Virus record (IMG/VR): IMGVR_UViG_2778261569_000015 | Coordinates: 1 to 4,714 of that record | Length of the DNA stretch: 4,714 nucleotides | From: a virus | Lineage: Duplodnaviria > Heunggongvirae > Uroviricota > Caudoviricetes | Direction: 5' to 3' (one strand) | Shown: piece after piece, positions 1 to 4,714 of the stretch | Layout of the letters: each line of letters opens with the position of its first letter | How positions within the stretch are numbered: position 1 is the stretch's first letter | Program-made: the position numbers and the translations under genes | The notes under the pieces: generated by a model | What the model was told of the DNA's origin: nothing | Databases searched by the model: none | What the model saw: the letters and a program-made list of their open reading frames with translations, nothing else

Positions 1-38
1 TGACGGACTTCGGGGGAAAAACGAGTATTTTTAGTCAT
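1..38 (-). CDS. IS3-family transposase OrfA, N-terminal 12 codons only (gene runs off the window)
   Basis: ATG at 38-36 on the minus strand, preceded by GAGGT with 7-nt spacing. Translation is MTKNTRFSPEVR, the N-terminus I recall for IS629/IS1203-type OrfA. Confidence 0.7.
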   Translation of the reverse strand, partial: MTKNTRFSPEVR

Positions 39-92
39 CCTGTTTACCTCTTTCTCAGGGAGTTTAGTCTCCAGGATTTCCGGGGCGGTTCA
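1..92 (-). mobile_element. Left end of an IS3-family insertion sequence (IS629/IS1203-like), continuing beyond the window edge
   Basis: The minus strand from 92 downward reads TGAACCGCCCCGGAAATCCTGGAGACTAAACTCCCTGAGAAAGAGGTAAACAGG-ATG. This is a TG-initiated terminal inverted repeat followed by SD GAGGT and the orfA start, and it matches my recollection of the IS629-group left end. The family call is from memory, not a search. Confidence 0.75.
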
Positions 93-1738
93 CTCCTCTG
101 ACCGCAGGCGGTGCAGATCTTTTCCGGTTCCTGTTGCACTACTGGTTCAGGTTGTTTCGTTTCTGGCTCGTTTTGTTGCGTATTTGGGCTGTTCTGTTCC
201 GCTTTCTGGTCGTTCTGTTCCGTTTCTGGCTGATTCTGGTACACAGAATCGCGGGTCTGGATCCCCTTAATCCATTTCGGATCATTCGGGTCGCTAATCC
301 CTTCAACAAATTCTCCGCGAGAGGCAGCCAGTAATTTGTCTGCATCGACAGGATTTTGGGGCGGAATGTTTTTCCGGGCTTCATGGAGTTCTGCCCGCAG
401 TTTCTGATATTTCGCATCAACAGAATTTATCTGTGGCTGAGCATCCATCGACTGCGTGTCCTGATTATGTTCAGTTGTATCCGGTTCCACTGCTTCAGTC
501 GTTGCCTGTTCATCTGCCATTGCGCCAGATGGCTGCGGTTTTTCTTCATCATCCTGTTTTCCTTCTTTTGTTACACGCTGCGGCATTGGAGCAGAGGAGC
601 GACCGCAGGCAATATCCACGATTTCTGGATCAGGGTTGGCATGGTCGGTTTCGGTCAGTACTTTGTTCAGATATTCGGTAACACGGTGGGGAGTAGCCTC
701 GATACCAATTGGTGCTTCTTTCACGGATGCAACCACTATCGCGCGGGAATAATCCAGGTGACCAGGCATGGCGATGAATTTGTCACGAAAAACAGAAAAG
801 GGCGGCTTATTCTCTGAAACGATTTCTTCAATGCGTTTGGCGTGTGCCGGATGTGGATTGTAAATATCGATGTCCATTGAACGGGCCAGAACGCCAGCGG
901 CAACGTCACGTTCCACTGACGCATCATCGTGGACAAAACCTTCACCGCGATCGGTAAGAATTCCTCCGCCAGCATTAGCGCCGGATGGCGTGCGGCTGAT
1001 GCGTAAAACACGATTTCCTTTCATCCACTCTTTTGTCAGCAGACCTCGATCGGTATAGTCAGCGTCCAGGTATGCTTCGAAAAAAGCAGTCATTAACCCC
1101 AGACTGGAATTAACGGGATTAGGGAAAACTTTGTCTGTGTCGCGTACCAGTTTGTGAAGGTCGCGAATCTCCAGCGGGTCGAGCAGCTTTGTGTTGTGGG
1201 AAATAGCCAGGGCAGTAACAGCAGGCAGTTCTTCAGCTCGTGCGATATGTAATGCCTGAAGTTCTTCCCGTGAAACGTGCGTTACCGGTTTTTCGCTGCC
1301 ATGTTGCGCAAGCCAGCGAATGGGCAGTTCCTGACCGGAAATCGGCAGGAGCATATTATCCTCAATCTCAGCCATGTCTTCGCCATTGACGTTGGTATTG
1401 TCAGTGCTGGCTGGTTTGTCCTGAACTGAGGGGGAAGGCGCTATAAATATCATTGTGATGCCATCTTCTCCGCCTTTTTCATAGCGGTTGCAGAATTCAG
1501 TATCGAACACACCTTCAGGCGGCAGGTCATTAACAATGGGCAAATTCACGCGAACAGGTTTTTTGAAATCCTCTTCGTCAAATCCAGCATCGTCCATTGC
1601 GACAACACCCCGTGATATTGCAACCGATAATTTTTTTGCTGTGCGCCAGTAAAAACCGCCTTTAATCCCAAGGCGTTTTCTGACTTTGTCATTTTTGGCT
1701 TCGTAATACAGTGCAATTTCTTCTTTATCAGTGCTCAT
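44..1738 (-). CDS. Prophage protein of unknown function (564 codons as read), 3' end interrupted by the IS; occupies the position of ydfE in Qin-type prophages
   Basis: Long ORF with SD GAGGT 6 nt upstream of ATG 1738 and about 50% G+C by eye. The last 15 codons ([15 protein letters not shown]) are encoded by the IS terminal repeat (92-47), so the native C-terminus is lost. The native C-terminal ~110 residues are Q/E/P/T/N-rich low complexity. No Walker A or other catalytic motif recognised. Confidence 0.8.
134..250 (-). repeat. Degenerate tandem repeats (~21 bp units such as GTTCTGTTCCG(C)TTTCTGG) inside the 564-codon gene
   Basis: Visible near-repeats at 192-212 and 213-233 with further degenerate copies at 150-190. 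They encode the Q/E/P-rich tail ([32 protein letters not shown]). Confidence 0.6.
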
Positions 1739-1830
1739 TGATAAACCTCATAACTATTTTAAGGTTGTACGAATCCCTGCTATTGCTGGCATGCTTAATC
1801 AACGGGTATGGCGTTAATACGGCTGGCGGG

Positions 1831-2019
1831 TTATCCAGCCGGTATTTCGTTATTCAGGTACAGCGATACTTTGTTTAACGGGAGACATTCACCGGAAATT
1901 TTTTGCTCGTCTCTTGCCTGATGGCAGGATTCTTTACTGGCATAAATTCCGGTAATCACATTCTGTGGCTCACCTGTTATAAGAAAAACCGTCATCATCA
2001 GTGCAAACGCTGAACTCAC
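1831..2019 (-). CDS. ydfD: YdfD-like small lysis protein (62 aa)
   Basis: GTG start at 2019-2017 overlaps the dicB stop (GTGA). The product MSSAFALMMTVFLITGEPQ...EQKISGECLPLNKV...EIPAG resembles my recollection of E. coli Qin YdfD in length, hydrophobic N-terminus and EIPAG end, and it sits in the same position immediately after dicB. Confidence 0.6.
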   Translation of the reverse strand: MSSAFALMMTVFLITGEPQNVITGIYASKESCHQARDEQKISGECLPLNKVSLYLNNEIPAG

Positions 2020-2204
2020 TGCTGCCCTCCGAAAATGCCAAGTTCAAGAAGGGCAATTCTGGAGAGTATGGAATTATCATTGAGAAGATAAGGCTCATAT
2101 TTTCTCATCCTGATGGCGTCTTCAGTAAACTCCCGGTTACTGAGCAGAATACCAATATTAAAACACCCTTCAGACGTATTAACGTTTGGTAGTGACGTTT
2201 CCAT
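2016..2204 (-). CDS. dicB: DicB-family cell division inhibitor (62 aa)
   Basis: Internal start of the 97-aa track ORF: ATG at 2204-2202 with SD GAGGA 7 nt upstream (TTGTTGAGGACGCGATA-ATG). The N-terminal half METSLPNVNTSEGCFNIGILLSNREFTEDAI closely matches recalled K-12 DicB (METLLPNVNTSEGCFEIGVTISNPVFTEDAI); the C-terminal half is divergent. Confidence 0.85.
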   Translation of the reverse strand: METSLPNVNTSEGCFNIGILLSNREFTEDAIRMRKYEPYLLNDNSILSRIALLELGIFGGQQ

Positions 2205-2373: not shown

Positions 2374-2431
2374 AAAAAGGGCGGCAGAGCAGCCACGGAG
2401 TAAAACTGATACCGCCAAACGTCACCAGAAA
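2374..2431 (-). ncRNA. dicF: DicF small regulatory RNA
   Basis: Minus strand reads TTTCTGGTGACGTTTGGCGGTATCAGTTTTACTCCGTGGCTGCTCTGCCGCCCTTTTT, nearly identical to the recalled E. coli DicF sequence, including the 3' GC-rich stem and U-run. It lies between the upstream ORFs and dicB as in Qin. Confidence 0.8.
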
Positions 2432-2767: not shown

Positions 2768-3073
2768 ATGCACTCTAAATCAATCAATCGATATTATGTC
2801 CATGTGCAGTTATTTGAAGCAACAATGGAACAGGAGAAAAAGTTCGAGACTCTGATGCCAAATTTTAAATACTCCAGGATGATTAATGAAGGTGACATTG
2901 AATATAAATTATTGCCAGGGGCATACGTTATTCAGTCAACGCTTAATGCGAATCAAATACTTGAACAAACCTTTTCTATTGCTAATTCAGTTGGTGCTAA
3001 TGCTCACATTTTTGTTTGCCCTTATGATGAAAGTGCAACCCTTTTGCCTTGTGCTGATTTTAGCACTTACTAA
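2768..3073 (+). CDS. Hypothetical protein (101 aa), low-GC gene antisense to the operon
   Basis: ATG at 2768 preceded by a strong SD GGAGG (2758-2762, 5-nt spacing). The track ORF 2696-3073 is trimmed to this start. A sampled stretch is about one-third G+C, against roughly half in flanking genes. The 3' end overlaps the convergent ORF 3060-3365 by 14 bp. No recognisable motif or TM segment. Confidence 0.6.
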   Translation: MHSKSINRYYVHVQLFEATMEQEKKFETLMPNFKYSRMINEGDIEYKLLPGAYVIQSTLNANQILEQTFSIANSVGANAHIFVCPYDESATLLPCADFSTY

Positions 3074-3365
3074 CTAAATTTAATTTATGTTCAAGTTCGG
3101 CTATTTGCATACGTAGTGCTTTAACCATTGTTTCATGATAAATCTCACTCACTCCACCTGGGTGTGGGGTGAATTTAGGTGAATCATCTTTGTTTTCAGA
3201 ACTCAGATTCTCTTCGTACAGCTTAATAAAGGAATTACGCACATTATGGGATATATTGTCGATGGTTTCTTTTTCTACGGTACTCAGGTCAAGAGTCGCC
3301 AGTTGGGAACGAACTATATTCGCTGCCATTTCCTGGAATTGCATTGGTAAATCTTTAAATTCCAT
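3060..3365 (-). CDS. Hypothetical protein (101 aa) in the pL-like operon, AT-rich, C-terminal predicted helix
   Basis: Preferred start is ATG 3365-3363 with SD GAGGT 5 nt upstream; the track start at 3377 lacks an SD. It follows the ydfA-like gene with an 11-nt gap. Product begins MEFKDLPMQFQEMAANIVRSQ. Whether it corresponds to ydfB/ydfC of Qin cannot be judged from memory. Confidence 0.6.
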   Translation of the reverse strand: MEFKDLPMQFQEMAANIVRSQLATLDLSTVEKETIDNISHNVRNSFIKLYEENLSSENKDDSPKFTPHPGGVSEIYHETMVKALRMQIAELEHKLNLVSKC

Positions 3366-3376
3366 CGTCAACCTCA

Positions 3377-3529
3377 TCAGTCAGTGTTTCTGGCTAACCA
3401 GCGACGCGCGCCAGCTTCAGTTTTAAACGTTTTGCTTCTGGTATACGTCATCGCGGTAAACGTGCCGTCCAGGTTGGGGAATACTCCGTATACCAGAGAT
3501 TCGTTGTTGCCAAGATTGAGCGTATCCAT
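3377..3529 (-). CDS. ydfA: YdfA-like small protein (DUF1391-type, 50 aa)
   Basis: Internal start of the 82-aa track ORF: ATG 3529-3527 with SD GAGGT 4 nt upstream. Product MDTLNLGNNESLVYGVFPNLDGTFTAMTYTRSKTFKTEAGARRWLARNTD matches my recollection of Qin YdfA and is the first gene after the repressor, as in Qin. Confidence 0.65.
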   Translation of the reverse strand: MDTLNLGNNESLVYGVFPNLDGTFTAMTYTRSKTFKTEAGARRWLARNTD

Positions 3530-3697: not shown

Positions 3698-4087
3698 TTA
3701 TTTTTGTCGCGTTATTGGGTCAACGTATTCTGAGTAAAATTCGGTCAGTTTTTGAAGGCGCATTTGAAAAGCTGCCAGCATATTTCTACGCTCTACAGGT
3801 GGCAGGTTTCTGTAAACATCAAGCAGGGCTTTCTCATCATCATCAAGCGCCTCTCTGTTTGTATCTTCTTTTCCTGTCAGTAGCCAGGAAAGGGAAACAT
3901 TTGTCGCTTCTGCAATTTTGGCTGCGGAATCTTTACTGATTGTCCCTCTTTTTTTCCAGGCGTTGACTGATGAGCGTCCTACACCAGCGATGCGCGCTAA
4001 ATCTGAACCGCTTAAATGATGCTGTTGCGAGATCGTATCTAACCTTTCTGCCAGCGGGGTGTCGTATTGCTTTTTTCTCATGTCCAT
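3698..4087 (-). CDS. cI/DicA-like phage repressor, XRE-family HTH (129 aa)
   Basis: HTH segment LSGSDLARIAGVGRSSVNAWKK near the N-terminus, with a C-terminal helical region (ALLDVYRNLPPVERRNMLAAFQMRLQKL) arranged like DicA. Divergent from a Cro-like gene and followed by its own terminator. No SD; a -10 hexamer abuts the ATG. Confidence 0.85.
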   Translation of the reverse strand: MDMRKKQYDTPLAERLDTISQQHHLSGSDLARIAGVGRSSVNAWKKRGTISKDSAAKIAEATNVSLSWLLTGKEDTNREALDDDEKALLDVYRNLPPVERRNMLAAFQMRLQKLTEFYSEYVDPITRQK

Positions 4088-4189: not shown

Positions 4190-4465
4190 ATGACAGCATT
4201 GGACAAGGCAATAAAGATTGCTGGTGGTATTCGTCCGCTAGGGCGTGCAATAGGGGCTTGGCCGTCTCAAATACACAAATGGGCAAATGAATACAATGGT
4301 CGAGTGCCGACAGGGGAGCGGGTTCGTCAAATTTATATTGCAACTGGGGTGACTCCTCATGAATTGCGACCAGATTTATATCCGAATCCAACCGACGGGT
4401 TGCCTGCTGGAGATAAGGCTAACACACAAAATACACCGGAGTTGATTCATGAAAATCAAGCATGA
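4190..4465 (+). CDS. Cro-like HTH regulator (DicC/YdaS family, 91 aa)
   Basis: SD GGAGG 4 nt upstream of ATG 4190. N-terminal AIKIAGGIRPLGRAIGAWPSQIHKW and ...GVTPHELRPDLY fit the Cro/YdaS pattern. It is divergent from the repressor. Confidence 0.8.
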   Translation: MTALDKAIKIAGGIRPLGRAIGAWPSQIHKWANEYNGRVPTGERVRQIYIATGVTPHELRPDLYPNPTDGLPAGDKANTQNTPELIHENQA

Positions 4466-4714
4466 ACACATCCGCATGGCGATGAATGCCTGGGCGCGTC
4501 CTGATGGCGAAAAAGTTCCAGCAGCTGGAATAACCCAGGCTTATTTTGAGTTGGGTATGACGTTTCCTGAACTGTATGACGACAGCCATCCGGAAGCCCT
4601 GGCTCGCAATACCCAGAAAATTTTCCGCTGGGTAGAGAAAGACACCCCTGATGCTGTTGAAAAAATGCAGGCTCTGTTACCGGCGATCGAAAAGGCGATG
4701 CCGCCTTTGCTGGT
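4449..4714 (+). CDS. YdaT-like protein in the cII position, N-terminal 88 codons (no stop within window)
   Basis: ATG 4449 with GGAG 7 nt upstream; overlaps the cro-like gene's last 17 nt. Translation MKIKHEHIRMAMNAWARPDGEKVPAAGITQAYFELGMTFPELYDDSHPEALARNTQKIFRWVEKDTPDAVEKMQALLPAIEKAMPPLL. The MKIKHEHI start and position downstream of cro resemble the Rac YdaT family as I recall it. Confidence 0.65.
   Translation, partial: MKIKHEHIRMAMNAWARPDGEKVPAAGITQAYFELGMTFPELYDDSHPEALARNTQKIFRWVEKDTPDAVEKMQALLPAIEKAMPPLL

Follow-up and report, generated by a model that had tools for sequence, protein, structure and literature searches.

A large reading frame downstream of dicB as the 5' part of a RecE-family prophage exonuclease gene very probably interrupted by an IS629/IS1203-type element

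The locus considered here raises the question of what a large and apparently orphan protein, with a disordered tail, would be doing behind dicB in a prophage. The stretch of DNA that we analyzed (the window, 4,714 bp) is an entire draft contig (NJZZ01000085.1, GCA_002462085.1) and ends inside an insertion sequence (IS). Its genes follow one another in the order cI-like repressor (3698-4087), DUF1391, two orphan ORFs, DicF (2379-2430, upstream of dicB; Rfam, 75 bits), dicB (2016..2204, minus strand; Pfam DicB, E 7.4e-34), a ydfD-like DUF1482 gene (1831..2019, minus strand; Pfam DUF1482, E 1.8e-14) that overlaps dicB by 4 nt, and finally a 564-codon ORF running from ATG to TAA (44..1738, minus strand). 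A Shine-Dalgarno-like GAGG, read from the sequence, lies 7 nt 5' of this ATG (1746..1749, minus strand). The 564-aa ORF, which no other in the window approaches in length, lies downstream of dicB and the ydfD-like gene in the same orientation. The initial annotation was right on its size and its orientation, and the two Pfam matches confirm the identities that it had given to the neighboring genes.

RecE-family matches and the recombination slot

Profile searches readily place the ORF in a family, although the initial annotation had found no motif in it that could be assigned. Pfam Exonuc_VIII (PF06630) matches residues 56-189 (1172..1573, minus strand) with an E value of 4.5e-34 and 118.5 bits (cutoff 25), PHROG 607 (exonuclease) matches with an E value of 4.5e-223, and residues 1-548 of the ORF align with positions 1-534 of the 877 in NCBIfam NF007259 (exodeoxyribonuclease VIII) at 989 bits. 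The last of these scores misses the NF007259 equivalog cutoff of 1269 bits, as does that of the intact 814-aa allele described below (1094 bits, profile positions 1-603 of 877), because in both cases the C-terminal third of the profile is left unmatched. On the strength of these sequence matches, the 564-aa ORF is the N-terminal 548 residues of a prophage exonuclease of the RecE (exonuclease VIII) family. The assignment is a confident one, and the family is already well characterized.

The annotation of other copies points the same way. In a megablast search of 5,426 complete E. coli genomes, window positions 91-1800 occur at 99.9-100% identity in many O157:H7 genomes, where the matched genes carry the annotation "exonuclease" or "RecE family exodeoxyribonuclease". 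The region is also present in 51 phage records, and the annotated matches among the 30 rows listed are all named exodeoxyribonuclease VIII, RecE or exonuclease. A search with the PADLOC defence models returns no match to the ORF itself, the sole match being a weak DEDDh at the C-terminus of the intact allele.

The position of the gene is likewise that of an exonuclease. The order in an intact O157:H7 locus (L002) is dicB-ydfD-exonuclease-xis-int, to be compared with kilR-ydaE-racC-recE-recT-ralR-rcbA-xisR-intR in the Rac prophage. In intact prophages the early-left operon is repressor-controlled and carries the exonuclease gene at its distal end, just upstream of xis and int. Judged by this gene order, the window gene stands where a lambdoid early-left operon has its recombination module, between the kil-type gene and xis/int. 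The earlier proposal of an unknown protein belonging to a kil-type operon for division inhibition and lysis thus gives way to a RecE-family gene in its customary place.

Comparison with RecE of Rac (866 aa, b1350) delimits what the two proteins share. Residues 112-617 of the intact O157 allele are ~88% identical to RecE 101-595, and both proteins carry within this span the Exonuc_VIII region, two low-complexity stretches, the SDPNDPKW motif and a CxxC-x8-CxxC motif; both genes also have a kil-type gene before them and xis/int after them. In contrast, the first ~100 residues of Rac RecE are a different cassette from those of the O157 allele, whose Q/E/P linker is moreover 14 aa (two heptads) longer, and past approximately residue 617 the two have no similarity at all: the C-terminus of Rac RecE (~600-866) is a PD-(D/E)XK 5'-3' nuclease, whereas that of the O157 allele is a DEDDh 3'-5' nuclease (PF16473). 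The downstream neighbors differ as well. In Rac this stretch is occupied by recE and recT, and ralR and rcbA come between recT and xisR, whereas in L002 the exonuclease gene is directly followed by the excisionase and integrase genes and recT is missing. Since the O157 alleles carry a DEDDh 3'-5' nuclease and have no recT, labels such as "exonuclease VIII" should not be taken to imply a RecE-like activity.

In K-12, the Qin gene ydfE (b1577) occupies the same position, directly downstream of dicB-ydfD, and is also an IS-cut pseudogene (IS2E). Homology between the window gene and ydfE was considered and rejected, the best BLASTP match having an E value of 9.7; ydfE has no sequence similarity to the window gene and is a positional analogue only.

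The intact allele and the junction with the insertion sequence

An intact counterpart of the gene reveals what the window copy has retained and what it has lost. By BLASTP, ORF residues 1-549 are identical at 549 of 549 positions to WP_000102179.1, an 814-aa protein of E. coli O157:H7 lambdoid prophages that goes under the names "exonuclease" and "3'-5' exoribonuclease domain-containing protein" and which in strain E32511 is encoded by a gene of 2,445 nt with the excisionase and integrase genes directly next to it. Nucleotides 1-1648 of the gene match the intact locus (L002:5063-7507) without a difference and the two then diverge completely. The source record of that locus (H2) is 100% identical to window positions 91-1800, including the sequence 5' of the gene as far as the 3' end of ydfD, and the upstream order of dicB and a ydfD-like gene is shared. 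This nucleotide and BLASTP identity defines the native part of the window gene as codons 1-548 (93..1738, minus strand). The 814-aa form is present in many O157:H7 genomes and the gene is intact in most relatives, so it is not the case, as the initial annotation had allowed it might be, that the ORF is a pseudogene wherever it occurs.

The intact protein opens with a variable alpha/beta domain (~100 residues), which is followed by a conserved helical core (113-390) and an acidic disordered stretch; a short helical part then leads into the linker of Q/E/P heptad repeats and the conserved CxxC-x8-CxxC motif, and beyond another acidic linker the protein ends in a DEDDh 3'-5' exonuclease domain (PF16473, residues 633-804). 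Pfam recognizes in it Exonuc_VIII, the Rv2179c-like PF16473 (E 8.4e-66) and, weakly, RNase_T, and the DxE, D and H-x4-D motifs can be read directly in its sequence. Relative to WP_000102179.1, the copy in the window breaks off after codon 548/549 and is missing residues 550-814. Gone with these residues are one CxxC of the Cys motif, the acidic linker that follows and the DEDDh domain, which is not encoded anywhere in the window. The PD-(D/E)XK 5'-3' domain (DUF3799) is absent from the window ORF too, the intact allele having PF16473 Rv2179c-like/RNase_T in its stead. Of the zinc-ribbon-like CxxC-x8-CxxC, which reads CNACGQTGGDNCPDC in RecE, follows the heptad linker in the intact allele as well, and gives weak matches to Pfam DZR (double zinc ribbon) and DUF2256, the window retains the first CxxC (C542-C545; 104..115, minus strand), the second having been lost to the IS. 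From a product that is left with no nuclease domain of any kind we infer a loss of exonuclease function; the window gene would be a pseudogene, and its product presumably incapable of exonuclease action.

The match to the intact allele stops at window position 91/92, precisely at the terminal TGAACC of an IS3-family inverted repeat. Read on the minus strand from the point of divergence, the sequence is TGAACCGCCCCGGAAATCCTGGAGACTAAACTCCCTGAGAAAGAGGTAAACAGG and then the start of orfA, MTKNTRFSPEVR, with the orfA ATG at 37..35 (minus strand; ATG ACT AAA AAT ACT CGT…); the IS terminus itself begins with TG (TGAACCGCCCCGGAAATCCTGGAGAC...) and leads on to this ATG. Because TG is common to the gene and to the IS terminus, the boundary between them is ambiguous by two bases, and the 5' 1,646-1,648 nt of the gene are kept. 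A 32-nt stretch of the IS end in the window is found exactly in both IS copies of another locus, L001, whose transposase genes are annotated in RefSeq as IS3 family / IS1203 with a programmed frameshift, and the flanks of those copies, as printed, match the IS terminus of the window through the start of orfA. Since the L001 copies share both the 32-nt stretch and the terminus, window positions 1-92 (minus strand) are the left end of an IS629/IS1203-type element (IS3 family), comprising the terminal inverted repeat TGAACCGCCCCGGAAATCC... and the beginning of orfA. It follows that the last 15 codons of the ORF and its stop (44..92, minus strand) are IS sequence: BLASTP identity ends at S549, the third base of which falls at the junction. 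What looks like a C-terminus is an artefact that arises where the reading frame runs on into the IS. With the element lying between the two CxxC halves, translation would run 15 codons into its inverted repeat and then stop.

We conclude that the ORF is very probably the 5' 1,646-1,648 nt of a lambdoid-prophage RecE-family exonuclease gene interrupted by an IS629/IS1203-type element of the IS3 family. The junction bears directly on the contrary reading of the ORF as a complete stand-alone protein with a native disordered tail, one that would work alongside DicB and YdfD as part of a kil-type module. A clean ORF from ATG to stop, a plausible ribosome-binding site and the shared orientation with dicB and ydfD are what such a protein would display. 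However, identity to the 814-aa protein persists through residue 549 and is succeeded by an IS inverted repeat, the RecE-family matches are strong, similarly interrupted copies are pseudogenes in PGAP, and the positional analogue in K-12, ydfE, is unrelated in sequence. The junction analysis rules the stand-alone protein out, and it retains next to no probability.

Short-read contigs stop at repeats, and it is conceivable that a contig of this sort was wrongly extended into a repeated IS while the gene is really intact. The junction rests on draft contigs only, the window being a 4.7-kb contig that ends 92 nt into a multi-copy IS, and the exact gene-IS junction is found neither in the 5,426 complete E. 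coli genomes nor in the GTDB representative genomes. An artefact of assembly nevertheless strikes us as very unlikely. The sequence changes over precisely at the TG that ends the IS inverted repeat, which is what transposition produces and would not be expected of a random chimera, two contigs carry the identical 564-aa product, and closed genomes contain independent IS3-family insertions elsewhere in the same gene (in L001 at gene nt 1107, and in H26-H30). The L001 copy interrupted at nt 1107 is annotated as a pseudogene, as are similarly interrupted copies by PGAP. The restriction of the window junction, which is absent from the complete E. coli genomes and GTDB representatives, argues for a strain-specific event within the interruption that we favor.

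Such events have precedent in O157:H7. One study documents that IS629 is highly prevalent there and drives the diversification of this serotype (PMC3271280), and another describes a further STEC pair that differs mainly in the position of a prophage IS629 (PMC10810198). Compared with the known IS629/IS1203 insertions in O157:H7 prophages, the window has the same inverted repeat and the same orfA start; it differs in that its site occurs in no complete genome searched and in that it contains only 92 nt of the element. Because the window ends at this depth inside the IS, a simple insertion and an IS-mediated deletion of the downstream part of the gene look alike here, and the latter may be what took place. 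In either event the locus belongs to an already-known kind, a routinely annotated prophage exonuclease gene in an ordinary IS-disrupted copy, and the supposed large orphan and its disordered tail turn out to be a RecE-family gene broken by one of many IS629/IS1203 insertions. The insertion would probably block read-through from the early-left promoter to the genes that lie downstream in intact prophages, xis and int, and a block on xis/int transcription might help to lock the prophage in place.

Linkers and the N-terminal module

The initial annotation described a Q/E/P-rich tail encoded by degenerate tandem repeats. The repeats and the composition are borne out: TRF reports a degenerate tandem repeat at 153..238 with a period of 21, 4.1 copies, 75% matches and a score of 91 (105 when the same repeat is taken at period 42), and the 21-bp repeats encode heptads of 7 aa in frame. 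The terminal location is not, since 44..92 is IS sequence and the segment is an internal linker. This Q/E/P-rich heptad-repeat linker (residues 491-540; 119..268, minus strand) is 58% Q/E/P/T and 12% hydrophobic, with pLDDT below 50, and it is preceded by an acidic disordered segment (residues 391-437; 428..568, minus strand) that is 49% Q/E/P/T and has a net charge of -10.

An AlphaFold2 model of residues 1-548, computed with 149 diverse relatives in the alignment, has a mean pLDDT of 79.9. Over residues 391-440 its block-mean pLDDT is 38-55, and runs below 50 occupy residues 401-404, 411-414 and 418-437 in the acidic segment and residues 491-515, 519-531, 533-536 and 541-548 on the side of the linker. 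The model thus predicts a disordered linker in each of the two polar segments, which upholds the earlier suggestion of a disordered linker and discards the accompanying one of a terminal tail.

That the repeats could vary in copy number, as the initial annotation anticipated, is confirmed by the relatives, in which 32, 38, 46, 52 or 54 aa separate the conserved SDPxDPxW motif from the first CxxC, and by E. coli genomes, in which matches to the linker DNA differ in length by -18 and +21 nt. The linker DNA is found in 4,189 of the 5,426 E. coli genomes, and each of the O157:H7 records listed has 4-5 matches to it, reflecting several copies of the region per genome. In distant relatives the Cys motif is absent, and an acidic, polar low-complexity stretch is kept at the position of the linker. 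The Q/E/P segment may accordingly be pictured as a flexible tether of variable length that would join the N-terminal module to the nuclease, rather than as a tail for interactions.

The folded portion of the model is not the single globular block of ~440 residues that had been supposed. Residues 1-100, the variable N-terminal cassette (1439..1738, minus strand), are predicted to form a small alpha/beta domain, and residues 113-390 (569..1402, minus strand), which are ~88% identical to K-12 Rac RecE, a mainly helical core with pLDDT mostly between 85 and 98; short helices are predicted at 439-456 and 466-473. Of the two kinds of homology search that the initial annotation recommended, profiles give the RecE family and structure comparison gives no fold relative: with Foldseek, the best E value for the model is 1.5 against the PDB and 0.12 against the viral structures of BFVD. 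Sequence searches of PDB chains find nothing below E 0.3 with the single sequence and nothing below E 0.48 with a profile of 150 relatives. Conservation among 90 divergent relatives, in a MAFFT alignment made noisy by mosaics, falls on scattered positions (F219, W238, T250, R264 and others) with no active-site pattern.

Mosaic partners and the fate of the truncated product

With HMMER, 1.84 billion cluster representatives (50% clusters) were searched exhaustively and yielded only 218 relatives at E ≤ 1e-3. Of these, 61 are long; 42 of the long ones have Exonuc_VIII, 17 have DUF3799 (PD-(D/E)XK), 10 have an Rv2179c-like (DEDDh) domain and 3 have a RecT domain, and either type of N-terminal cassette is found with either type of nuclease.

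This mosaic architecture is one reason to consider that the truncated product might keep a function of its own, whether as an autonomous N-terminal module (for example in DNA-end tethering or partner binding) or as a dominant negative acting on intact paralogues in O157. The module is found paired with different nucleases (the 17 DUF3799 and 10 Rv2179c-like domains among the 61 long representatives), it has a confidently predicted fold with pLDDT above 90 for 269 residues, and O157 genomes contain several copies of the region (4-5 linker matches in the listed records). Full-length RecE, furthermore, is reported to enhance linear-linear recombination beyond what the nuclease domain achieves alone (PMC11611040, PMC11610958). 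Against this, neither the fold nor any motif suggests an activity, and the rarity of the allele fits a neutral or recent IS event rather than selection. We therefore consider a retained function unlikely.

A broader proposal goes further, namely that RecE begins with a self-contained module of novel structure (~390 folded residues together with their linkers) which prophages shuffle between unrelated nucleases, and that the IS-truncated allele expresses this module alone with residual activity. Such activity could consist in DNA-end tethering or in the recruitment of partners, and could modulate the intact paralogous exonucleases of the same genome. We allow this proposal only a small chance of being correct; were it so, natural truncations would offer a handle on the role of the RecE N-terminus in linear-linear recombination. 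The earlier statement that the function of the ORF is unknown is accordingly overtaken in one respect, its family now being assigned, and holds in another, since the literature still describes as unclear what the N-terminal part of RecE does biochemically (PMC11611040, PMC11610958). That question is already recognized there, and the present locus does not make it newly testable.

A different kind of joining is encountered in one of the three relatives with a RecT domain, P0122, an in-frame fusion of RecE(1-519) to RecT(84-269) that is probably the product of a deletion.

Nuclease domain of the intact O157:H7 allele

The intact exonuclease allele of E. coli O157:H7, labelled "RecE family" and lying outside the window (L002:5063-7507, the locus of strain E32511), ends in a DEDDh 3'-5' exonuclease domain (PF16473), whereas the RecE of Rac carries a PD-(D/E)XK 5'-3' nuclease. 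A second difference from Rac is that recT is absent downstream of the O157:H7 gene. Among cluster representatives, moreover, both types of N-terminal cassette are each found with both nuclease types. "Exonuclease VIII" labels on O157:H7-type genes may therefore misrepresent the encoded activity.

One cluster representative among the long RecE-N relatives (P0122, 703 aa) consists of RecE residues 1-519 joined in-frame to RecT residues 84-269. Neither the nuclease domain nor the N-terminus of RecT is retained in this fusion, which is probably a deletion product from a Rac-like prophage.

Insertion sequences, the operon slot and the contig ends

The same exonuclease gene is split by IS3-family elements at other sites in other E. 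coli strains (L001:5063-8820, and matches H26-H30 in complete genomes). These insertions suggest that the gene has been inactivated repeatedly by IS629/IS1203.

At the K-12 Qin locus, the slot after dicB-ydfD that the exonuclease ORF occupies in the window is held by ydfE (b1577, L003:3579-4499). Like the window ORF, ydfE is a pseudogene cut by an insertion sequence, in its case IS2E. The two share no sequence similarity, and on this comparison the slot is seen to be filled by different genes in different prophages.

The window comprises the entire contig NJZZ01000085.1 of the draft assembly GCA_002462085.1. It stops at one end inside the insertion sequence, a multi-copy repeat of the kind at which short-read contigs break; the other end falls in a plus-strand YdaS/YdaT-like gene pair (4190-4465 and 4449-4714) adjoining a cI-like repressor gene on the minus strand (3698-4087).

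Convergent ORFs, DicF and terminator-like hairpins

Between the DUF1391 gene and DicF lie two convergent ORFs, of 101 aa (2768-3073, plus strand) and 105 aa (3060-3377, minus strand), which share 14 nt at their 3' ends. Neither matches Pfam or PADLOC, and both are labelled hypothetical in RefSeq O157 genomes. The 101-aa ORF opposes the direction of the operon in a moron-like manner.

The DicF small RNA (2379-2430, minus strand; Rfam RF00039, 75 bits versus a gathering score of 48) lies upstream of dicB and contains a terminator-like hairpin at 2396-2381. The gap that separates the ydfD-like gene from the exonuclease gene holds a G+C-rich hairpin (1820-1841) that reaches into the 3' end of the former; only on the plus strand, antisense to the operon, does this hairpin have a terminator-like score. 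Across positions 1-2500 of the window, nine terminator-like sites were observed, against 3.6 expected from shuffles.
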